A DNA stretch of 64,000 bases. Origin: Candidatus Latescibacterota bacterium (GTDB lineage Bacteria; Latescibacterota; UBA2968). Shown here one piece after another: positions 14,823-24,677 of the stretch. The notes under the pieces were generated by a model, which was not told the DNA's origin, did no database searches, and saw nothing but the letters and a program-made list of their open reading frames with translations. Every line of letters begins with the position of its first letter. The stretch's first letter is position 1. Made by a program: the position numbers and the translations under genes. Where the stretch lies: NCBI GenBank assembly GCA_965204375.1, contig OZ241986.1, positions 5,664,001-5,728,000 on the forward strand, given 5' to 3'.

Positions 14823-15233
14823 TTAAGAACTGTGGAGGAAGTTTGCGATTTTGTCTCGTATTTCATCGCGCACTTTGCGAAATACGCGCAGGCGCTCTTC
14901 TTCTGTGCCCTGGGCATCGGCGGGGTCTTCAAAGGGCCAATGTCGCGTGTTTTTGGCTCCGGGGAAGATCGGACAATTTTCTTTGGCGTTGTCGCAAACG
15001 GTGATGACGAGGTCAAAATCTCGATTGAGATATTGATCGATGCTGTCGGATGTGTGGTGGGATATGTCGATGCCGATTTCACGCATGGCGCGAATGGCGA
15101 GTGGGTTGACTGTTGTGGGGCTGACGCCTGCGCTATGGGCGTCATAGGTGCCATTGCTCAGATGGCGAAATAGCCCTTGCGCCATCTGGCTGCGGCAGGA
15201 GTTGCCCGTGCAGAGGATGAGTACGCGGTTCAT
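14823..15233 (-). CDS. arsC: Arsenate reductase, thioredoxin-coupled LMW-PTP type
   Basis: LCTGNSCRSQMA, ITVCDNAKENCP, HWPFEDP. Confidence 0.93.
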   Translation of the reverse strand: MNRVLILCTGNSCRSQMAQGLFRHLSNGTYDAHSAGVSPTTVNPLAIRAMREIGIDISHHTSDSIDQYLNRDFDLVITVCDNAKENCPIFPGAKNTRHWPFEDPADAQGTEEERLRVFRKVRDEIRDKIANFLHSS

Positions 15234-15250: not shown

Positions 15251-15964
15251 TTAACAACAGCCTTTGACGTCGGTGCCGGGGTCGGAATGGCAGCGGATAA
15301 ATTCGTAAAAAAACGCGCCTGCGGTTGCGCCGAGAATGGGGCCGAATACGTAAGCGGGAAAATGGGTCCAATCACCAGCGGCCAGAGCGGGTCCAAGGCT
15401 GCGCGCCGGGTTCATGGAGGCGCCGCATAGTGGACCGGCAAACATGGCTTCAAACCAGATGGTGCCGCCAATGGCAAGGCCAGCGGCTTGACCCGTGGCG
15501 CGGTAGTCTGTGGCTACGGCCATGATGACGACCATTAAGAAGAAAGTTAGCAAAAATTCCCAGATAAAAGCTGTGGCAAACAAATTATCCATCGGTTGTG
15601 TAACACCCAGGTTGAGGGTTTGATCGGGGTGTTTTGCTTTTAAGATGGGTGCGAGAGACCAGAGGTGAATGCCGCTGGCGGCAATGGCTCCGAGACATTG
15701 CGCTGCGATGTAGGGCAGGATTTCGCGTTTGGGAAAGTGGCGGGTGAAGGCGAAGGCAGTGGTGACGGCGGGGTTGAAGTGCGCGCCCGATATGTGTCCG
15801 GTGGCATAGACCATTGTCATGACGATGAGGCCAAAGGACGTTGCTATGCCCACGTGGGTGATGGCGCCTTCGGATAGCTGGTTGATGGCGACGGCTCCGC
15901 ATCCGCCAAAGACGATGGCAAATGCGCCGATGAATTCGGCACCACATTTTTTGAGGAGGTTCAT
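15251..15964 (-). CDS. MIP/aquaporin channel, likely arsenite-conducting, with C-terminal Cys-Cys
   Basis: ISGAHFNPAV and GASMNPARS motifs; adjacent to arsC; ATGA overlap with the upstream gene. Confidence 0.9.
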   Translation of the reverse strand: MNLLKKCGAEFIGAFAIVFGGCGAVAINQLSEGAITHVGIATSFGLIVMTMVYATGHISGAHFNPAVTTAFAFTRHFPKREILPYIAAQCLGAIAASGIHLWSLAPILKAKHPDQTLNLGVTQPMDNLFATAFIWEFLLTFFLMVVIMAVATDYRATGQAAGLAIGGTIWFEAMFAGPLCGASMNPARSLGPALAAGDWTHFPAYVFGPILGATAGAFFYEFIRCHSDPGTDVKGCC

Positions 15965-17556
15965 GGCGTCCATTTCTGGATGTCGGCGAGGATTTTTTCG
16001 GCATCGGGGTGCTCGGGTTGCAGGCGCAGCGCGGTTTGCAATTGCTGGACAGCGAGGTCAAAGCGCTGGTGCTCGGCATGGAGATAGCCCAGGCGTATGT
16101 GTGATGGGACGTGGACAGGGCTGATGGCGATTGCACGCATGTATCCGTTAATTGCGCGTTCATTTTCTCCTTTTTGGCGGTCGATTTCGGCCATTTGAAA
16201 ATGCGGTCGGTGGTCATCTGAGGTGCGTTCGGCGTATTTCTGAAAGGCTTCATAGGCGCTGTCTGTCTGCGCGGTTGCGAGATAGCTCAGGCCCAGGTGA
16301 TAGCGCGGAATGACGTAATTGGGTTCGACTTCGATGGCTTTTGAAAAGGCTTTGATCGCCGCGTCATGGCGTTCGAGCAGGTGGAGTATGGTGCCGAGGC
16401 GAAAATGGACGCGGGTGAATTGGGTGTTGTGCGCTGCGGCTTTTTGGAGGTGGTCAACGGCTTGTTCGTGATTTCCTTTTCGGTGTGCGATCATGCCGAG
16501 TTTGAAATGCGCATCGGCGAGTGTGGAATCGCGTTGTAGGGCTTGCTGGTAGTATTTTGTGGCTTCGTCGATGCGGTCGAGTTCGTTATAGGCATTGGCC
16601 AATTCATAACAGGCAATGGGATCATTCGGATTGGCCTGGATGGCCTGGCGAAGTTGGGCAGTGATTGTTTCAAAGGTTTGGGCGTATTGATTGAAGAACA
16701 TGCCGGATAAGGCTGCCTGAATATCGGGGTTTATGGGCGACTGCTGGATGGCTTGTTCGAGTTCGCTCATGGCTTCTTCTGTGTGTCCGCGTTTTTTGAG
16801 GATCAAGGCCAGGCGATAGCGTGCAACAACGTGTTCAAAGTCGATTTTGAGGGCGTTGCGATAGGCATTTTCCGCTTCTGTTATTTTGTCGCGCGTTTCG
16901 TAGATGCGCCCGAGATAATAGTGGGGCATCGCGCTTTTGGAATCGCGTTGGACGGCGCGTTTGAGACTGCCTTCGGCTTGTGTGAGCAGAGCGTCGTCAA
17001 TGGGAGATTGTCGCAGTGCCCGATACAGTGCCATCATGCTTTCGGTTGCGATGCGGAGTGCTTCTGCATCGTGAAACATGGGCATTTGCAGACGGGTTTT
17101 TTCATGGGGTGTCAGGGTCACGTTTAACTGAGCTGGAATGGCGTAGAGCACTGGCAAGATGGCGTCGAGCGGTGCAGAGACGGATGCCTGCCCCGTAAAG
17201 GTTTCGATGACTTCGCCCGTGGTCGTATGAAGCATGTCGGTTTCGATTTGGATGCGCGATCCCATAATGTGATAACGCCCGCTTAAAATCAGGTGGATGT
17301 CCAATTTTTTTGCGAGATCAGAGGAGCTTACCGGCGTGTCTCCGAGTTTGTGGCGCAGATATTCTTCGTCAACGGCATGTATTTTCGGTACATGGTAATA
17401 GGCGTTGACATATCCTTCGACAATGGCTGCGGAGAGCCAATTCCACTGCGGGTCGCCCAATGTGTTTTCATGGGGCAATACGGCGATGTTCCATTGGGCG
17501 TAGATGGGCGCGTGGATCAGGGTGATGAGCATGCTGAGTTTGAGGAGTTTTTTCAT
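15961..17556 (-). CDS. Exported TPR protein with N-terminal TolB-like/FlgO-type domain
   Basis: Signal peptide followed by many TPR repeats. Confidence 0.85.
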   Translation of the reverse strand: MKKLLKLSMLITLIHAPIYAQWNIAVLPHENTLGDPQWNWLSAAIVEGYVNAYYHVPKIHAVDEEYLRHKLGDTPVSSSDLAKKLDIHLILSGRYHIMGSRIQIETDMLHTTTGEVIETFTGQASVSAPLDAILPVLYAIPAQLNVTLTPHEKTRLQMPMFHDAEALRIATESMMALYRALRQSPIDDALLTQAEGSLKRAVQRDSKSAMPHYYLGRIYETRDKITEAENAYRNALKIDFEHVVARYRLALILKKRGHTEEAMSELEQAIQQSPINPDIQAALSGMFFNQYAQTFETITAQLRQAIQANPNDPIACYELANAYNELDRIDEATKYYQQALQRDSTLADAHFKLGMIAHRKGNHEQAVDHLQKAAAHNTQFTRVHFRLGTILHLLERHDAAIKAFSKAIEVEPNYVIPRYHLGLSYLATAQTDSAYEAFQKYAERTSDDHRPHFQMAEIDRQKGENERAINGYMRAIAISPVHVPSHIRLGYLHAEHQRFDLAVQQLQTALRLQPEHPDAEKILADIQKWTP

Positions 17557-17557
17557 G

Positions 17558-19345
17558 TCATTTCTCATCTGTTGTTAAGTTTTCATCATCGTGCGTGACA
17601 TAGAGAAATGCGGTACACATTTCATCGGTCGATTTTTCGCCCCATCGCACCAGCCTGGGTGGATTGTTGGGGTTTCGGGGGTTGTCGGCAGAGTTGTCGT
17701 AAAAGGCTTCGAGCGTGATACGGGTGCCGCGCGGGAGTGCGATGGGTGTTTTGTACACGTAGGTTTCTTGCCAGTTAAAGTCCCAGGGTTTGACCCATAT
17801 TAAGGATTGTTGCGTGCCGCCGGGATAGGTTGCGGTTATTTTCATTTCCGTGCCGAGCAAGTGCATGTGAGGCAAGATGCCGAGCAGGTGCTGGTCGCGT
17901 GTGATGGTGATTGCGCCGGTTACTCTGTGTTGTTTGATGTTGGGTGGAATGAAGAGCAAACGGCTGTTGATGACTTCTTCGCGGAGTTGTTTTTGTACGG
18001 GTTTTTGGGCAAAGTAGATGCCCAGGCGGGAATGATCTTTTACGGCGCGGCCAATTTTGTGATAGTGGATCTGGAGGATGATGTCGCTGTTGGGCGGCAA
18101 ATCGCGGCCTATGCCATCTGGAAGAACAAAGGGGGTGTTGCCGGGTGCCCAGCCGCCCAGGGATTCGTAGATGGGTACGCCAATGCCGCCAAAGCAGGGG
18201 TATCCAGGCGAGGATGCGTTTTCCTGTTGCAGGCGCGCTTTGCCAGAGATGTCGATGTACACGCTGACGTGGTGGACGACTTCGCGCTCTCCGGGCAGGA
18301 CTTCAATAGCCGATACGTAGTTGCCCGTGTCCTGTTTTGTGGGCAAGACAAAGCAGCGGTATTCGTCGCGGCCCATGGCTTCGAGTGGATAGGGTGCTTC
18401 GGGTTCGAGGATCAGGTCGGGCGTGCCCAGGGTCCAGCTTTTGGAAAATGCGATGGGTTCGGGCTGGTCGGCGGGATTGCCCTGGGGCATGCCGCTGTTG
18501 ACCCATTGCGCGAAGGTGTGGATTTCGGCGTCTGTGAGTCTGCGGGAATTTTTGAAGTCGCCGTATTCGGGGCGCGCTTTCCAGGGTGGCATGATGCGGG
18601 CTTCGATGGAGTCGCGCATCTGATAGGCCCAGGCGAGTACTTCTGTGTAGTCAAAAAAGGGTACGCGACCGATGCCGCCGGGGCGATGACAGTTCTGACA
18701 GCGATTTTGGAGCAGGGGCAGGATGTCGCGATAAAATGTTGGGGTGGAGGTGTTCGCGACAGTTGTTTGCCGGGGAGTGCGTCTGATTTCACAGCCAAAA
18801 CTGGGGAGGCTGGTGTTGGCGATTTTGCGGTTGGCGAGTAGTGCATCAAGGGCGTCCCATAATCCGCGCGAGGTCGTATCTTCGGGGATGCCCCAGCCGT
18901 TGTCGATTTCGCCCTTGTAACGCAGGCGGCGCTGGGCGTCAAAGAGAAAGGCATGGGGGGTATGGGTCGCGCCGAGGTGGTCGGCGAGTTTGTTGTGAGG
19001 GTCGCGCAGGACAGTGAAGGGTACGGGGTTTTGAGCGTAGTGTTCTTTGATGTCTTTGTCGGTTTCGTTAAAATTGGCATTTACAGATATCAGGTGTACG
19101 CCTTTGGGGGCATACTGATCGTGTATTTTTGTTCGGTGTATGTCGTATTTGAGCGAGGCAGGGCAGACGACGGAACTGAAGATGATGACGAGTGCGCGGT
19201 CCTGGGATAAATCACTGAGGGTAACGGGCGAGCCGTTGAGGTCGGCAAGGGTAAAGTCATTGAGGGTGTCGCCGATTTGGAGGGGAGCGGCCCAGGGGCA
19301 AATCGGGAAGGCGAGAAAGAGTGCGATGACGAGAGGGCGTTTCAT
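17558..19345 (-). CDS. Redoxin + c-type heme + PHM/DBH-like copper monooxygenase multidomain protein
   Basis: Signal peptide; redoxin (VCP, TPHAFL, GCEI); CQNCH; VVHH, QIHYH, PHMH, DEMC. Confidence 0.85.
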   Translation of the reverse strand: MKRPLVIALFLAFPICPWAAPLQIGDTLNDFTLADLNGSPVTLSDLSQDRALVIIFSSVVCPASLKYDIHRTKIHDQYAPKGVHLISVNANFNETDKDIKEHYAQNPVPFTVLRDPHNKLADHLGATHTPHAFLFDAQRRLRYKGEIDNGWGIPEDTTSRGLWDALDALLANRKIANTSLPSFGCEIRRTPRQTTVANTSTPTFYRDILPLLQNRCQNCHRPGGIGRVPFFDYTEVLAWAYQMRDSIEARIMPPWKARPEYGDFKNSRRLTDAEIHTFAQWVNSGMPQGNPADQPEPIAFSKSWTLGTPDLILEPEAPYPLEAMGRDEYRCFVLPTKQDTGNYVSAIEVLPGEREVVHHVSVYIDISGKARLQQENASSPGYPCFGGIGVPIYESLGGWAPGNTPFVLPDGIGRDLPPNSDIILQIHYHKIGRAVKDHSRLGIYFAQKPVQKQLREEVINSRLLFIPPNIKQHRVTGAITITRDQHLLGILPHMHLLGTEMKITATYPGGTQQSLIWVKPWDFNWQETYVYKTPIALPRGTRITLEAFYDNSADNPRNPNNPPRLVRWGEKSTDEMCTAFLYVTHDDENLTTDEK

Positions 19346-19350
19346 TGTGA

Positions 19351-20040
19351 TCAAATGTTGCGTTTTCGCAGGTAGTCGATGAGAAAGATGAGTGTGACTA
19401 TTCCAAAAAATCCGGCGATTGATAGGGCGATGTAGTGGCTTTCGTTCGGGAGTCGCCAGTATTGTATTATAACAAATATAAGGGCGGGGACAAAGAAGAT
19501 GAGCGTGCCCAACAATGCATATATCGATTGTGTGGCGGGTTCTATTTGAGGCGTATCGCGAGTTGTGGGCTTTATGGTTGGAGGAGCCGTTTCGGGAGGT
19601 TTGACGCGGGCGAGCATTTCTATGACGTTTTTGCGATAGCTGTTGTCGGCAGCGGCATATACGCTCCAAAAGGCGGAGATTTCTTCGGCACCCGTGCGGG
19701 TAAATTTCTTTTCGAGTGCGCGTTTGCGCTCAAGAGAAAGTTCGGCGGGTGCTTTTTTTTCGTGTTTTCGAAGGTCGTCGAGAATGTGTGTGAGGCTGGC
19801 GTCGTACCCGTGAATCCAGGGATAGGTGGCGTGTTGGAGCAATTTTTCATCGGGGTTTGTGTCGCCAAATTCACGGAGATATGCGTCAATGAGTTTTTTC
19901 CGCTCGATTTTAGACCCTGCGCCGGGAAAGTGTTTTGCCCGCAATTTGCCGTCGCGTTGAAAGGGCAAATAGAGATGGTTGTGATCCGCTATTTCGAGGA
20001 TGCGTTTGAATGCGTTGATGAGCGTTTGGCGGTGGGACAT
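19351..20040 (-). CDS. Hypothetical protein with two C-terminal TM helices
   Basis: ORF fills the operon gap; hydrophobic C-terminus. Confidence 0.7.
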   Translation of the reverse strand: MSHRQTLINAFKRILEIADHNHLYLPFQRDGKLRAKHFPGAGSKIERKKLIDAYLREFGDTNPDEKLLQHATYPWIHGYDASLTHILDDLRKHEKKAPAELSLERKRALEKKFTRTGAEEISAFWSVYAAADNSYRKNVIEMLARVKPPETAPPTIKPTTRDTPQIEPATQSIYALLGTLIFFVPALIFVIIQYWRLPNESHYIALSIAGFFGIVTLIFLIDYLRKRNI

Positions 20041-20068
20041 GGAAGATAGTGTAGGATAACCACAGGGA

Positions 20069-20098
20069 GTAGAGACAACCTCTTGAGGTTGTCCCTAC
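20069..20098. repeat. GTAG-type REP-like palindrome
   Basis: GTAGAGACAACCTC-TT-GAGGTTGTCCCTAC. Confidence 0.7.
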
Positions 20099-20107
20099 AG
20101 GCGGATT

Positions 20108-21418
20108 TTATCCGTTGACTGCTTTTCCAAAGCTTGCGACAAATATGAGAAAGTCGGGAAAGTCAACAGTGCCGGATCCGTCGAGATCAAAGGTTGCATT
20201 GGCCGTGCCAAAGGCTTCTGAGAATAGGAGGAAGTCATAAAAGTCAACGGTGAGCGAACCATTGAAGTCGGTGCGTGGGTCAGCGGGGACGAAGATGGCC
20301 GAACCGGTGATGGTCAGGCTGATTGAGGTTTTTTCCGGGTCGTTTGAGATTATGTCGATGGTGCCGGTAATTGGACCTGGGGCTGGCGGATTGAAAGTCA
20401 CGGTGATGTCCTGAGATTGACCGGGTGGCACTGTTAATTGGGTTTCTGAAAGCGCAATGCCCGCGATGTCGGATTGGATGTCTGTGATGTTGAGTGGGCC
20501 TGTACCAGTATTTGTGATGGTAAATGTTGTTGTGACGCCTCTGCCCATTTCGATTTCGCCCAGGCTCAAGTTTTCCTGAATTAGTGATATGGTCGGGAGT
20601 TGAGACGCTTCGATGGTGAGGTTGACAAAAGGGAACTCCAGGGCGCCAACACTTTGTTCGCCGTGTTGCAGGGTGATTTTACCCGAAAATGTGCCGGCTT
20701 GTGTCGGCGTCAGGGTGATTTGTAAGGTTTTGCTTTCGCCGGGTGCTATGGTCAGTGTGGATGGCTCCATTGTGATGCCTTCGGGAGCTGTGTATCCGGT
20801 GATTTCGAGGGGACCGGCACCGGTGTTTTCGATTTTAATTTCGACGGTTTTGGATTGTCCCACTTCAAGGGTTCTGCCAAAGTAGATCTCCGATGGGAAG
20901 AGGGAAATAACAGGCGTTTTGTTGAGTAGTGCATCGACTTGCGCGTTGATCAGGTCATGAGTGCCGGTGGCGATTGCTGTGGTCCTGAGGCGCAAGATGC
21001 CTCCCTGGTCGATGACGAGGATATCTTCGTTGCGAGTGCCGAGGGTTCCGGAGACGCCCGAGGCATTTGTGAGTAGCGGTGTCGTAACACTGGATTGTGT
21101 CAGATAGGATGTTGCCTGTGTGCGGTTGCCGTCATATCTGTCGAGTGTGAGGATCTGTATGCCGGTTTTGTCTTTGTTGCGTTGGTGAATATTTTTTTCA
21201 AAGGCGGGACCCGCCCCTATGCAAGTCCCTCAGTTGTAGCCTACAAAAAAGAGGACGGAGACGGTATTTGTCGAATGGCTGACGCCGTAAAACCTGCCAT
21301 CGGTGGCTTGAAGTTGAAATTCGCCTACTTGTTCGCCTACTCTGGGCTGGGCAAAAGTTGTTGTGCATAAGCCCAAAAATAGGGCGATAGAGAAAATACG
21401 CATTTGCAGGTGTTTCAT
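20108..21418 (-). CDS. Exported UxxC redoxin + two Ig-like (ASH/choice-of-anchor D) domains + dockerin-like EF-hand tail; probable selenoprotein
   Basis: ORFs 21230-21418 and 20108-20995 are in frame and separated by a single TGA (21230-21232): FFVGYN-U-GTC; I translated the gap and found no other stop; tail DFNGSLTVDFYDF/DLDGSGTVDFPDF. Confidence 0.88.
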
Positions 21419-21572
21419 GGTGTTCCTCCATAAGGTGAGAGAATTGACCGCTGATTGCTAATATACTAAATCGCGTGCAAAATGTCACGGGGTTTGCGCT
21501 TGATTTTGGGGTTTGGTTTATCTACATTGTCTTTACGTTTCGAGTGTTCTGCGGTTCCCATTTTTTTCTTCT

Positions 21573-22706
21573 ATGTCTCTATCTATAAATGACTTTGAAG
21601 CTGTGGTTCAGCGCGCCATCGCGCTCCGCGATGGCGGCGATCTGGAAGCGGCTGTTGCGGGTTTTGATGCAGCTGTTGCGATCCGCGATGGCGATCCCGT
21701 TGTGTTTGTTCAGCGCGGGATTACTTATGGGCAATTGGGGAGCTTTGATGCGGCGATTGCAGATTTTGACCGCGCAATCGCTCTGACACCAGATGATCCA
21801 TGGGTGTGGAGCAATCGCGCGATTGCCTGCGGGTTGATGGGGCAGTTTGATGCGGCGATAGATAGTTTCGGAAAGGCTGTTGCGCTCGATCCGGAAAATA
21901 CGCAGGCACTTGCCAGCCGGGGGGAGACCCTGCGCGAGATGGGGCGGTTTGAAGAGGCTCTGGGGGATCTCAATCGGGTTTTGGCGTTGGATGCGGATTA
22001 TTTTGGCGCGCTGATCAGTCGCGGGCATGTGTCGATGCAGTTGGGGCAGTTTAACGCGGCGGCGGTCGATTTTGACCGGGCGATTGCAGTTGGCAATGGG
22101 CATCCGGATGCGTTTGCCGGGCGGGCGGAGATCTATCGACAGGCTGGTGAGGCTGAGGCCGCGATGGAGATGTTTGGGGAGGCTTTGAAGGCGATGCCCG
22201 ATCATCTGGGTGCATTGATCGGACGGGGCGAGGTGCTGCGAGAGTTCGGTCAAGTGGAGGACGCGCTTTTGGATTTTGACCGCGCACTCGTTGTCGCACC
22301 TGACGACCCGGATTTGTTGGCCGCGCGGGGTGATATGTTGCGGCAATTGGGGCGAAGTGCCGAAGCAATACGCGATTTTACACGGGCGCTGGAGATTTTT
22401 CCCGATCATCTGTGGGCACTTATGGGGCGGGGCGTTGCGTTGCGGATGGAAAATGATCCCGAGGCGTCACTGGTCGATTTTGATCGGGCGGTGATGCTGG
22501 AGAACAGGGATGCGTGGATTTGGGCAAATCGCGGGGAGTCTCGACGGATGCTGGGGCAATTTGAGGCAGCGGTTTCGGACTTTACACGGGCGTTGGATAT
22601 CGATCCTGAAAATGGATGGGCACGAGAACTTCGCGCGGAGACGTTTCGTCAAATGGGACGATTTGCCGAGGCGGTTGAAGATATGAATCGGGCACGGGCG
22701 CAATGA
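21573..22706 (+). CDS. TPR repeat protein
   Basis: Almost entirely 34-aa TPR repeats (RG...LG.F..A..DF.RA...P). Confidence 0.92.
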   Translation: MSLSINDFEAVVQRAIALRDGGDLEAAVAGFDAAVAIRDGDPVVFVQRGITYGQLGSFDAAIADFDRAIALTPDDPWVWSNRAIACGLMGQFDAAIDSFGKAVALDPENTQALASRGETLREMGRFEEALGDLNRVLALDADYFGALISRGHVSMQLGQFNAAAVDFDRAIAVGNGHPDAFAGRAEIYRQAGEAEAAMEMFGEALKAMPDHLGALIGRGEVLREFGQVEDALLDFDRALVVAPDDPDLLAARGDMLRQLGRSAEAIRDFTRALEIFPDHLWALMGRGVALRMENDPEASLVDFDRAVMLENRDAWIWANRGESRRMLGQFEAAVSDFTRALDIDPENGWARELRAETFRQMGRFAEAVEDMNRARAQ

Positions 22707-23713
22707 GCGAGTCGCATCATATTGTTGTTGCTGATCGCACGGTTCCGTTTGAAGAGACTATTGAGCGGTTCGGGGAGGCACTGTCCAGGAAGTGTCGGTT
22801 TCAAACGCGCGCGCGGCGGTTTTACGATACGGTGTGGATCGCCGATTGTTATACGGATTACGTGCAGTCGGCGCTGTTTCGCAAATACGAAGGGCCTCTG
22901 ATGGAGGGTATCGCGCTTCGCACGATGGGCAAGGGGCTTTCCAAACAGCAAGTGCTGGCCGGGGCGATGGCAGAGGCGGTAGAGCGCATTTCGTTTTTTG
23001 ATGCGCTGGCGAGCGGGAGGGAGACTCCCATTTATGAGTTGACTACCGATGTAGAGCTTGTGCCGTCCAGTATGAAGGTGTCGGATGTGCCGCATTTGAA
23101 TGATTCGGCAAATGGGGTATCGGCGGGTAATACTGTGCTGGAGTGCGTGTTTCACGGTTTGCTGGAGATGCACGAGCACCTGGATGTGGGGAGGCATTTT
23201 TACTGGCCCGGGTTGGAACACCGGCAATTTATCGATCCGAATTTGACGGGTTTTTCCCCTCGCGTCACAGAGAAGATGCTGGCTGTGGCCGTGCCGGGGG
23301 AAAATGAGAAGGTGACGACGGTTCACGCGGTGGTGTGCCCCAAAGATTTGGGACCTCTGGTGCGTACATGCACGCATTTGGATGGGCGCATGGCATTGCA
23401 GCGGGCGTTTAATGAGACTGTTCAGAGTCACAAAACGCGGTTTGTATCTGATTTGCAGACTTTTGATGCCGAGATTGCACTGTGGGATTTGCCCAATCAT
23501 TTTACGGATGATTTGATAACTGATATTCAGGTGGTTTTGGGCGGTATGAAAAATTCGGTTTATGTGCAGGATTGGACAGATCCAGAGATGCAAATTCCAG
23601 TGTTGCGGCCATTTAGTTTAAAGACCTCAGAACACGAGCGGGACCACGCCATGATCGAGACGTATGTGCATCGCATTATGGTGGATTCGGGCAATTATAT
23701 TGTTTGGACGTGA
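22703..23713 (+). CDS. Compact YcaO-like family protein
   Basis: GKG......GAMAEAVER and SANGVSAGN....C..HGLLE motifs; IPV near the C-terminus; ATGA overlap with the TPR gene. Confidence 0.8.
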   Translation: MSESHHIVVADRTVPFEETIERFGEALSRKCRFQTRARRFYDTVWIADCYTDYVQSALFRKYEGPLMEGIALRTMGKGLSKQQVLAGAMAEAVERISFFDALASGRETPIYELTTDVELVPSSMKVSDVPHLNDSANGVSAGNTVLECVFHGLLEMHEHLDVGRHFYWPGLEHRQFIDPNLTGFSPRVTEKMLAVAVPGENEKVTTVHAVVCPKDLGPLVRTCTHLDGRMALQRAFNETVQSHKTRFVSDLQTFDAEIALWDLPNHFTDDLITDIQVVLGGMKNSVYVQDWTDPEMQIPVLRPFSLKTSEHERDHAMIETYVHRIMVDSGNYIVWT

Positions 23714-23716
23714 TGT

Positions 23717-23810
23717 GACGAATAGACGAATAGACGAATAGACGAATAGACGAATGGAGATACACACTGATTTTGGGAGGATGGGCGGGGTTCGTAGATT
23801 CGTAGATTCG
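23717..23810. repeat. Dispersed intergenic repeat copy 2 with a GACGAATA tandem
   Basis: 4 perfect + 1 imperfect 8-mers, followed by the core shared with 1641-1703. Confidence 0.85.
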
Positions 23811-23831
23811 CGACTGCCGCAGGAGGATTCA

Positions 23832-24677
23832 ATGATACCAAAAGCCATTTATCGATTCGGCGTTTTGGGTATTGCATTGACCATGGCTTGTAGCAAGGCG
23901 GCCGATCCTGAATATGTGATTGAAGAATCTGTTGTGACCACGCCTGCGGGTACTGAGCATGTGCAGGTTTTTGTTCCGGCCAGTACTTTTACGATGGGGG
24001 CGAGCGATGGTCCCACCAATGAACGTCCGCCGCACGAGGTGATGCTCGATGCATTTTATATCGATAAATACGAGGTGACCAACGCGCAGTATTTGGCTTA
24101 TGTCGAGGCCACGGGAAGTGAACATTCGCAGTTTTTTGGGATAGAGGGCTTTGACCAGCCCGATCAGCCGGTGGTGGGGGCTTTGTGGTCTCAGGCGCGG
24201 GATTATTGCCAGTGGGCGGGTTTGCAATTGCCGAGCGAGGCGCAATGGGAATTGGCCGCTGCGGGTACGGATGGGCGCATGTTTCCCTGGGGCAATGAGC
24301 CTGCGAGTGAATTGCTGTGCAATTTTAATTTCAGTTCGGGCCCCATGCCTGTGGGCAGCTATCCAGATGGTGCAAGTCCTTATGGCGCGATGGATATGGC
24401 GGGCAATGTGTGGGAGTGGACGCTGGATGAATATCAGCATACGTATTACGCAAATAGCCCCATGCACAATCCGGTGAATTTGCAAAATTCAGGTATGGAA
24501 GATGGGCCAGATCGCACGTTGCGCGGTGGGAGTTGGTTTTCACCACAACCCAGTATCCGCGTGTTTGTGCGGAGTACGGTTTTGATTATGGAAGAGCAAG
24601 CTCTGTCGCGCGACGATTTTGATACTTATGAAATATTTGCCCATATTGGGTTTCGGTGTGCGCGGGGAGAGCCTTAA
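23832..24677 (+). CDS. FGE-sulfatase (SUMF1-fold) domain lipoprotein, probably non-catalytic
   Basis: Lipobox MAC; FTMG, YEVTNAQY, LPSEAQWE, DMAGNVWEW, RGGSW, GFRC; catalytic Cys pair absent. Confidence 0.88.
   Translation: MIPKAIYRFGVLGIALTMACSKAADPEYVIEESVVTTPAGTEHVQVFVPASTFTMGASDGPTNERPPHEVMLDAFYIDKYEVTNAQYLAYVEATGSEHSQFFGIEGFDQPDQPVVGALWSQARDYCQWAGLQLPSEAQWELAAAGTDGRMFPWGNEPASELLCNFNFSSGPMPVGSYPDGASPYGAMDMAGNVWEWTLDEYQHTYYANSPMHNPVNLQNSGMEDGPDRTLRGGSWFSPQPSIRVFVRSTVLIMEEQALSRDDFDTYEIFAHIGFRCARGEP

Follow-up and report, generated by a model that had tools for sequence, protein, structure and literature searches.

The question raised by this locus is whether a TGA codon that interrupts an otherwise open reading frame terminates translation or is decoded as selenocysteine (Sec). 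The frame in question lies at 21418..20108 on the minus strand of a 64,000-nt stretch (hereinafter the window) from a Candidatus Latescibacterota bacterium, corresponding to positions 5,664,001 to 5,728,000 of contig OZ241986.1 in assembly GCA_965204375.1; coordinates without a contig prefix refer to the window. We conclude with considerable confidence that it is one gene, coding for a genuine exported Sec-containing thioredoxin-fold redoxin of 436 residues, and we are surer still, to the point of near certainty, that the UGA at codon 63 is decoded as Sec. At the level of sequence, the features by which selenoproteins are customarily recognized, namely, a conserved UGA, Cys-containing homologs, a hairpin of the bacterial selenocysteine insertion sequence (SECIS) type, and the sel genes, are all present.

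A single gene hidden by a TGA codon

The frame comprises 436 sense codons from the ATG at 21418 to a TAA at 20108..20110, and GGAGGA lies 5 nt ahead of the ATG. Its sole interruption is the TGA at codon 63 (21232..21230), which occurs in the context VLFFVGYN-U-GTC-IGAGPAFE (VGYN-U-GTCIGAGPAFEK) and supplies the first residue of a U63-G-T-C66 motif. Under translation table 11, the frame is broken into two pieces, 21230..21418 (62 amino acids [aa]) and 20108..20995 (295 aa). An initial annotation had taken these pieces for one frame interrupted only by the TGA in FFVGYN-U-GTC and had expected automatic procedures to split it. Translation of 21418..20108 bears out the first point, and the public records bear out the second: they contain only truncated products of 295 or 321-322 aa, of which the named ones are called "choice-of-anchor D domain-containing protein." Annotation pipelines miss the full gene because no curated sequence model reaches its threshold on the N-terminal domain. 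Upstream of the ATG, on the same strand, GTGACA-17-TATATT (21460..21488; 10 of 12 consensus matches) is a candidate promoter and only that, promoter-like sites in the region being no commoner than in shuffled sequence.

Conservation of the TGA and its cysteine counterparts

When the read-through protein is compared with the 20 other species-level members of the genus, its best match in every one of them (67-93% identity) contains exactly one TGA; the gene is split over two contigs in one of these genomes and shows an apparent frameshift near residue 379 in two. Throughout the 21 genus loci, the TGA is the codon written as U in ...G-[YFWH]-N-U-[GD]-T-C. A six-frame search of 168 genomes of the phylum with the N-terminal 170 residues (E ≤ 1e-8) recovered matches in 93, distributed over four families as 29/30, 20/22, 2/3, and 41/76, and none in the 36 genomes of the ten other families. 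Among the 150 phylum matches listed, 142 have exactly one TGA and no other stop, five are free of stops, and three have additional stops and are probably decayed. From 70 places that were fetched, we obtained 56 distinct Sec forms with the TGA in G-x-x-U-x-x-C; because the motif search admitted only U or C with x-x-C after it, the spacing is given by construction, which does not apply to the position of the TGA. The two intervening residues are diverse (GT, DT, SV, PT, PS, QT, GL, GV, AV, DL, TY, PH, TI, IV, HL, DF, PD, PL, PF, PY, PV, PA, SQ, and TF). All five stop-free forms show C-x-x-C where the Sec forms have U-x-x-C.

Beyond the phylum, when 1.84 billion representative proteins were searched exhaustively with HMMER, 250 matched at E ≤ 1e-3 and 69 at E ≤ 1e-10. 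Of the 150 of these that were listed, 142 cover the U63 column, and 138 of them have Cys there; the C66 column is Cys in 141 of the matches listed. The alignment of TGA with Cys that the initial annotation had proposed to look for among homologs of the read-through protein is thus found both within the phylum and outside it. In an alignment of 18 homologs drawn from the same 150, C63, C66, G60, F34, and G97 are invariant, and P71, D93, P114 (the cis-Pro position), and G140 are kept in at least 90%. Two Cys homologs (440 and 435 aa) share the full architecture of the selenoprotein. A quick and poorly resolved tree of 193 domain sequences (136 columns) contains eight changes between Sec and Cys, at least four of them on supported branches; no direction was drawn from it.

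These patterns bear directly on two alternatives. One is that a genuine TGC or TGT was turned into TGA by faulty sequencing or assembly. The chance of this is negligible, and we exclude it because 20 congeners, each assembled independently, have the same TGA, as do dozens of genomes further afield. The other is that the UGA is a true stop, either separating a gene for a 62-aa peptide from an independent choice-of-anchor-D gene or marking a decayed gene. Such an interpretation agrees with the way in which gene callers split the locus (products of 295 and 321-322 aa), and TGA is a normal and common stop in this genome, where it closes 829 of the 2057 open frames of at least 400 codons. However, in 142 of the 150 phylum matches listed, and down to 26% identity, protein-level conservation of an open frame extends to either side of the TGA; the TGA always occupies the first Cys position of C-x-x-C, and the predicted thioredoxin fold spans it. 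Decay, moreover, would not leave a single TGA persisting at one codon across 93 genomes. A true stop is hence very improbable.

Selenocysteine machinery and a SECIS-like hairpin

The genome encodes the complete machinery for Sec insertion. Its tRNA-Sec gene scores 70.1 bits with the Rfam model and is typed by ARAGORN as SeC with the anticodon tca; selD, which has one in-frame TGA of its own, is its immediate upstream neighbor, and selA and selB are adjacent to each other elsewhere in the genome. All four genes for which the initial annotation had suggested a search (selA, selB, selC, and selD) are therefore accounted for. A frame of the Redoxin family with one in-frame TGA stands head to tail with selD and tRNA-Sec within 1.9 kb (C1:5302065-5303902 of the same genome), an arrangement that looks like a small selenium cluster.

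Shortly after the UGA, the message can form a SECIS-like hairpin with a stem of 8-9 bp and a GUC loop, AGGGGCGG-GUC-CCGCCUUU, at 21218..21200 on the minus strand, or 21219..21199 if a closing U-G pair is included. Written out as 5'-A GGGGCGG (GUC) CCGCCUU U-3', it has 8 pairs, or 9 with the U-G pair, and a folding energy of -10.5 to -11.0 kcal/mol. It begins at the 12th base past the UGA, with 11 nt between, a spacing that agrees with the minimal element of Escherichia coli fdhF; from the UGA to the loop there are 19 nt. As set out in the legend to Fig. 2 of the 2026 review PMC13188914, the bacterial SECIS consensus has a loop of 3-9 nt with G in its first two positions (mostly G[G|U]) on a stem of 4-16 bp, with 16-37 nt from the UGA to the loop and a minimum free energy of no more than -7.5 kcal/mol. 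The hairpin conforms to all of these published constraints, and the initial annotation, which had placed a GUC-looped hairpin 12 nt past the UGA, was right on this point.

A hairpin is found at the same place across the family with different stems, such as GGGGCGG/CCGCCUU, GGACG/CGUCC, GCG..GAG/CUC..CGC, UCUCGGA/UCCGAGA, CUGGC/GCCAG, CUCUCG/CGAGAG, and UCGCG/CGCGA, and with G-rich loops (GUC, GGUC, GGC, AGG, CGGG, GAGGC, and CGUGC). In a recoding test, in which synonymous codons were resampled with the peptide kept and the folding energy of a 36-nt window was compared (300 resamples for the gene in the window), the hairpin proved more stable than the recoded versions (z -2.55, p 0.017); the mean z is -1.26 for the Sec forms (n=43) and -0.01 for the Cys forms (n=5). 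A strict SECIS scan permitting no bulges is passed by 26 of the 56 Sec forms and by none of the five Cys forms; elsewhere in the same genes, 4.3% of 15,296 in-frame positions pass. These figures are not probabilities, the sequences being related. The residues at codons 7 and 10 past the UGA change in step with the base pair that these codons encode, T..S corresponding to A-U, A..R to G-C, and A..S to G-U, and from these sequences the RNA stem appears to shape the peptide A/T-G-P-S/R. A SECIS of sliding register laid over the conserved A/T-G-P-S/R/A peptide would present a case in which RNA structure and protein motif constrain each other.

Hence, we propose that SelB carrying Sec-tRNA(Sec) would bind this hairpin and insert Sec at codon 63. 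Read-through without selenium could be envisaged instead, for example with Cys or Trp inserted by near-cognate decoding or from a mischarged tRNA-Sec, so that the product would in effect amount to an ordinary CxxC redoxin; Cys forms with this architecture do exist and presumably work. Nevertheless, the genome possesses a complete Sec machinery that is itself Sec-dependent (selD with its TGA), the hairpin fits the model of SelB binding and is under selection in the Sec forms and not in the Cys forms, and the upkeep of the UGA across the phylum would be costly without Sec. We accordingly give selenium-free decoding very little credence and retain Sec insertion as the reading of the UGA.

A predicted thioredoxin-fold redoxin domain with Sec at the nucleophilic position

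The UGA falls within a redoxin domain of thioredoxin fold, akin to TlpA, ResA, and DsbE, that covers residues ~27-166 (20921..21340, minus strand). An AlphaFold2 model of residues 1-170, made with the 18-homolog alignment, has a mean pLDDT of 89.5 and a pTM of 0.82 and consists of a beta-hairpin and a thioredoxin-fold core. In it, U63 stands immediately ahead of helix 64-81, at the position of the nucleophilic Cys of C-x-x-C, and the earlier assignment of UxxC to the active-site position of the fold is sustained by both the model and the Cys forms. The top Foldseek match is 2ls5, a putative protein disulfide isomerase of Bacteroides thetaiotaomicron (E 7e-12, TM 0.75), and the other best matches include 3gl3 (Chlorobium DsbE), 1su9 and its variants (Bacillus ResA), and 2b1k (E. 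coli CcmG); matches of this DsbE/ResA/CcmG type span E 7e-12 to 1e-9 and TM 0.63-0.75. The best NCBIfam models of the homologs are likewise ResA, StoA, and TlpA, and the Pfam redoxin thresholds are passed by a paralog and by Cys homologs. A signature of thioredoxin type is apparent in the C-x-x-C at the N-terminus of helix 1 of the model together with P114, which is kept in at least 90%. On these grounds, we read the N-terminal domain as a probable TlpA/ResA-like thiol-disulfide oxidoreductase with a U63/C66 selenenylsulfide pair.

A Sec-dependent peroxidase resembling peroxiredoxins, in which Sec63 would reduce peroxides and be recycled via Cys66, must also be considered. Among Pfam families, AhpC-TSA and Redoxin alone give any match to the domain; the peroxiredoxins AhpE, Bcp, and PrxQ follow close behind in the Foldseek results (E 1e-8 to 1e-10); and Table 2 of PMC2398784 files known Prx-like UxxC selenoproteins under pfam00578. 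Yet the best structural matches are DsbE, ResA, CcmG, and the disulfide isomerase, the homologs are best named ResA, StoA, and TlpA, and the C-x-x-C spacing combined with the conserved cis-Pro position is the signature of the thioredoxin type. The active-site motif of peroxiredoxins is P-x-x-x-T-x-x-C; here the sequence ending at Sec63 reads F-F-V-G-Y-N-U, with the invariant Gly60 in place of Thr at -3. A peroxidase function is consequently improbable, if less so than the alternatives concerning the UGA itself.

We therefore favor the oxidoreductase assignment, under which the protein would operate as an extracytoplasmic thiol-disulfide oxidoreductase whose selenol provides higher nucleophilicity at a low pKa. 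Sec63 might attack the disulfides, or other oxidized sulfur or selenium species, of a substrate, and the resulting mixed selenenylsulfide would be resolved by Cys66, one turn after Sec63.

Export signal and accessory domains

The remainder of the protein consists of a signal peptide, two Ig-like domains, and a dockerin-like tail, all encoded on the minus strand. The predicted signal peptide, of classical type and recognized by eye from the translation, comprises residues 1-23 (21350..21418), with a hydrophobic core and a putative TFA|QP cleavage site. The Ig-like domains, of the choice-of-anchor D class (the first also of the DUF1573/ASH type), occupy residues ~172-265 (20624..20905) and ~275-373 (20300..20596); they match the HYDIN/DUF1573/ASH families at E 1e-23 to 1e-27, and the NCBIfam model choice_anch_D (NF012200) reaches 106.7 bits over two stretches against a cut-off of 45. 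What defines the choice-of-anchor-D class is that its domains occur together with alternative C-terminal anchors. The tail (residues ~381-432; 20111..20278) has two EF-hand-like loops (DFNGSLTVDFYD and DLDGSGTVDFPD), D-F-N-G-S-L-T-V-D-F-Y-D and D-L-D-G-S-G-T-V-D-F-P-D, each followed by F-L-x-F, and EF-hand_1 matches it at E 1.4e-4. The succession of signal peptide, UxxC, two Ig-like repeats, and double EF-hand tail put forward in the initial annotation is hence recovered in full.

Outside the phylum, the nearest relatives have their redoxin domain fused to a sorting tail of the type IX secretion system (T9SS) in proteins of 263 and 730 aa (Por_Secre_tail, 43.6 and 38.4 bits). We place the enzyme beyond the cytoplasm because of its signal peptide, its two choice-of-anchor-D domains, and the T9SS tails of these relatives. 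It would be delivered there by Sec-dependent protein export followed by cleavage of the signal peptide, and the two choice-of-anchor-D Ig domains may act as a stalk.

Points weighing against the assignment

Several observations weigh against the interpretation of this gene as an exported selenoprotein. The presence of selenium in the product is a prediction from sequence. In two sponge RNA libraries belonging to a single study, contigs span 20110..21444 and 21081..21500 at ~94% identity and free of indels, and leave 20051..20101 uncovered; they are compatible with expression and are no proof of transcription. In the outside homologs listed, four of the 142 covering the U63 column lack Cys (three Ala and one Thr), the kind of substitution that the initial annotation had named as contrary evidence; it is far outnumbered by the 138 with Cys. 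On residues 27-142, the Pfam model AhpC-TSA scores 21.8 bits against a cut-off of 26, and no NCBIfam model attains its cut-off on the N-terminal domain, the ResA model reaching 14.5 of the 170 bits required. The signal peptide MKHLQMRIFSIALFLGLCTTTFA|QP was judged by eye, and residues 1-20 have a pLDDT of 55-59. In the tail, Dockerin_1 scores 16.8 bits, below its cut-off of 22.9.

The hairpin attracts further objections. A scan of 21100..21300 at E ≤ 10 found no Rfam family on the hairpin region. Thirty of the 56 Sec forms fail the strict no-bulge scan, several of these failures being bulged hairpins or hairpins with 15-nt spacing. Some Cys forms retain a weaker hairpin, which may reflect descent from Sec forms or conserved A/T-G-P codons that supply part of the pairing. 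On an ungapped alignment of 37 sequences, RNAalifold detected no consensus structure, because the register of the hairpin slides by 1-6 nt between subfamilies. Within two register groups, the pairing does hold by compensatory change, although these groups, which coincide with taxonomic families, were picked by eye, a weakness of the count; in the first (n=19), 86% of cells are paired and both sides change in three of five pairs (AU/GC/GU at one and GC/CG at another), and in the second (n=13), 95% of cells are paired and both sides change in two of six (UA/GC, 7 versus 6). The observed covariation score was reached by none of 500 shuffles in either group, and slid controls are at most 50% paired. 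A competing and stronger hairpin, GGGACUUGC/GCGGGUCCC, with an energy of -16 kcal/mol, directly abuts the UGA and is the structure preferred by RNAfold in the window sequence. We rejected it as the SECIS and take the downstream hairpin at 21218..21200 as the functional element because substitutions in three congeners break the abutting hairpin only, leaving the downstream one intact.

Possible docking to cohesins

The tail suggests a possible route to the cell surface. It is 60% identical to the tail of a paralog of the same architecture in the same genome (C1:5441153-5442442), in which Dockerin_1 scores 27.6 bits and so exceeds the cut-off. The genome contains 66 matches to the 61-aa dockerin-like tail and four cohesin matches over threshold (C1:4205200-4205565, 1930686-1931024, 4201376-4201720, and 5157230-5157535); in three cases, tail and cohesin fall within one open frame. 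After the best cohesin comes ...QNFPNPFNP, which in sequence resembles the start of a T9SS-type sorting domain, and other redoxin domains of the genome also lie beside dockerin-like tails. A complex prediction for a cohesin domain and the 61-aa tail returned a score of 0.02, without a verdict. Together these gene contents make a cohesin-dockerin display system carrying redoxins plausible. In such a system, the C-terminal double EF-hand module would be a dockerin and may tether the enzyme to one of the cohesin proteins, although for the selenoprotein itself we regard docking to a cohesin as a possibility that falls somewhat short of an even chance.

Extending this proposal, the enzyme could be one cargo of a cell-surface cohesin-dockerin assembly, in which dozens of dockerin-tailed proteins, including several redoxins, would dock onto cohesin proteins with a T9SS-type sorting tail, thereby placing a Sec center outside the cell in a sponge- and coral-associated lineage. 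We consider this larger scheme unlikely. If it is true, the Sec center could act on disulfides of the host matrix or on host-derived oxidants, the same domain in other phyla would get to the surface through direct fusion to a T9SS tail, and the protein would be the first extracellular scaffold-docked selenoenzyme as well as a non-cellulolytic use of the cohesin-dockerin system. It is only if extracellular docking proves true that the finding would surprise a specialist.

Paralogs, spread, and habitat

The family has expanded within individual genomes, with up to four copies per genome among the phylum matches listed. Tandem arrays of paralogs occur as Sec-Cys-Sec in one genome, as Sec-Sec in two, and as Cys beside Sec in two (loci L094 [G036], L045 [G037], L046 [G027], L072 [G079], and L074 [G082]), and such side-by-side Sec/Cys pairs offer natural material on Sec versus Cys outside the cytoplasm. 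A giant form of the selenoprotein is present in congener G010 (C1:857359-862356), where an open frame of 1631-1695 aa begins with the Sec-redoxin, continues with many Ig-like repeats, and has a dockerin-like end. In the genome under study, 5 of the 21 matches to Pfam Redoxin have exactly one in-frame TGA, the gene in the window being too divergent to match; judged by such frames, the organism has a sizeable redoxin selenoproteome, with no fewer than six or seven candidates of redoxin type in addition to SelD. As for habitat, runs labeled as sponge and coral metagenomes contain 25-39% of the sampled words of the 64,000-nt window.

At least 142 copies of the gene in 93 of 168 phylum genomes have thus been called as truncated "choice-of-anchor D" proteins that lack the catalytic domain. 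Metabolic readings of sponge- and coral-associated bacteria miss these exported redox enzymes and the attendant dependence on selenium because the genes are called in truncated form.

Gene neighborhood

Directly downstream of the selenoprotein gene, on the same strand, is a gene for a 229-aa protein with a hydrophobic C-terminal part (19351..20040) that belongs to no known family, with no Pfam match and no Atlas lead; in the genus loci it always occupies this position (79-92% identity), and two sister-genus genomes have it there as well (57-58%). Beginning 5 nt after it, the next gene (17558..19345) encodes a 595-aa protein in which profile matches and motifs delineate a signal peptide, a 1-Cys redoxin (VVCPAS), a CQNCH motif, and the N and C domains of a copper type II monooxygenase; the order is kept in all eight loci with a flank long enough. 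This exported fusion of a 1-Cys redoxin, CQNCH, and a copper type II (PHM/DBH-like) monooxygenase is unusual for a bacterium. Further along the same strand are a TPR protein (17568..15961), a MIP channel (15973..15251), and, 17 nt after the latter, an ArsC of the LMWPc type (15233..14823; CTGNSCRS motif; LMWPc, 71 bits). The channel and ArsC are likely to be an arsenic pair. On the other side, and divergent, are a TPR protein and then adjacent proteins with a YcaO domain and an FGE-sulfatase domain (22703-24677, plus strand).

No terminator-like site was found on the minus strand between the selenoprotein gene and the downstream genes. The 65-nt spacer that separates the selenoprotein gene from its 229-aa neighbor (20045-20109) contains a 9-bp inverted repeat, which no T tract follows. 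In the sponge RNA-library contigs (two libraries), this spacer is replaced by 134 other letters. From this layout, it is possible that the selenoprotein gene is co-transcribed with the downstream genes. The initial annotation had placed it at the head of an operon with a second redoxin, a Cu monooxygenase, and arsC. The genes are indeed present on the same strand and arsC is real (71 bits), but an unlisted 229-aa gene intervenes, the "second redoxin" and the "Cu monooxygenase" belong to a single 595-aa fusion protein, and arsC lies four genes further on, behind the TPR gene and the MIP channel. The paralog at C1:5441153-5442442 has unrelated neighbors, PhyH and Phe-tRNA synthetase, and for this reason we do not regard the link to the copper enzyme as a property of the family.

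Comparison with known systems

The kind of active site and the mechanism of decoding are ordinary; what is new is the architecture, the expansion across a lineage, and the systematic misannotation. In the literature, we found no description of a selenoprotein combining a redoxin, two choice-of-anchor-D domains, and a dockerin-like tail, of a dockerin-bearing selenoprotein of any kind, or of an expansion of such genes in one host-associated phylum, although the supplementary lists of the large surveys may already include members. Most thioredoxin-fold selenoproteins are small soluble proteins, and to these the gene adds a multidomain and possibly surface-tethered architecture.

The closest parallel in terms of the active site is offered by the UxxC selenoproteins of thioredoxin fold (Zhang and Gladyshev), which are among the commonest in bacteria according to Table 2 of PMC2398784 and the table of PMC13188914, in agreement with what the initial annotation had said of this class. 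Examples in those tables are Prx-like 1 (pfam00578), Prx-like 3 (pfam08534), and Trx-like 1-3, as well as the "Prx-like thiol:disulfide oxidoreductase," the "Redoxin family protein," and the "UGC-containing TlpA family." As far as the tables describe them, these Prx-like, Trx-like, and Redoxin-family proteins share with our protein the thioredoxin fold, a UxxC motif opened by Sec, a large excess of Cys homologs, and a SECIS hairpin just downstream. Our protein differs in that its redoxin domain diverges too far to reach the Pfam thresholds or any NCBIfam selenoprotein model and is continued by two choice-of-anchor-D Ig domains and a dockerin-like tail; it has also expanded within one phylum.

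With TlpA, ResA, and CcmG (DsbE), the redoxin domain shares the fold (TM 0.63-0.75), the predicted export, the C-x-x-C that opens helix 1, and the cis-Pro position. The classical members have W-C-x-x-C; in contrast, our protein has G-Y-N-U-G-T-C, with Sec for the nucleophilic Cys, is not anchored in the membrane, has no context of cytochrome maturation, and is far from the ResA model (14.5 versus 170 bits). Its closest sequence relatives outside the phylum are CxxC redoxins of ~260 aa with a T9SS sorting tail (Redoxin plus Por_Secre_tail), which have the same conserved residues and also go beyond the cytoplasm; they differ in having Cys and in carrying the T9SS tail directly on the domain, where the present protein has Ig domains and a dockerin-like module.

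Two further systems resemble the accessory parts. The Ig-like domains are similar to those of the OS_HP2/DUF1573 selenoproteins (NF041425, pfam07610; 55.9 bits, E 4e-15), but the score stays under the cut-off of 100, and the Sec of our protein resides in the redoxin domain, whereas in OS_HP2 it occurs in a UxC/UGC motif of the DUF1573 domain itself, as described in PMC2398784 and PMC13188914. Finally, like the type I dockerins of cellulosomes, the tail has a duplicated EF-hand-like calcium loop with an F-L-x-F helix each, and cohesins are encoded in the same genome. Unlike those dockerins, it is sub-threshold, whereas the tail of the paralog passes, and its cargo would be a redox selenoenzyme rather than a glycoside hydrolase.

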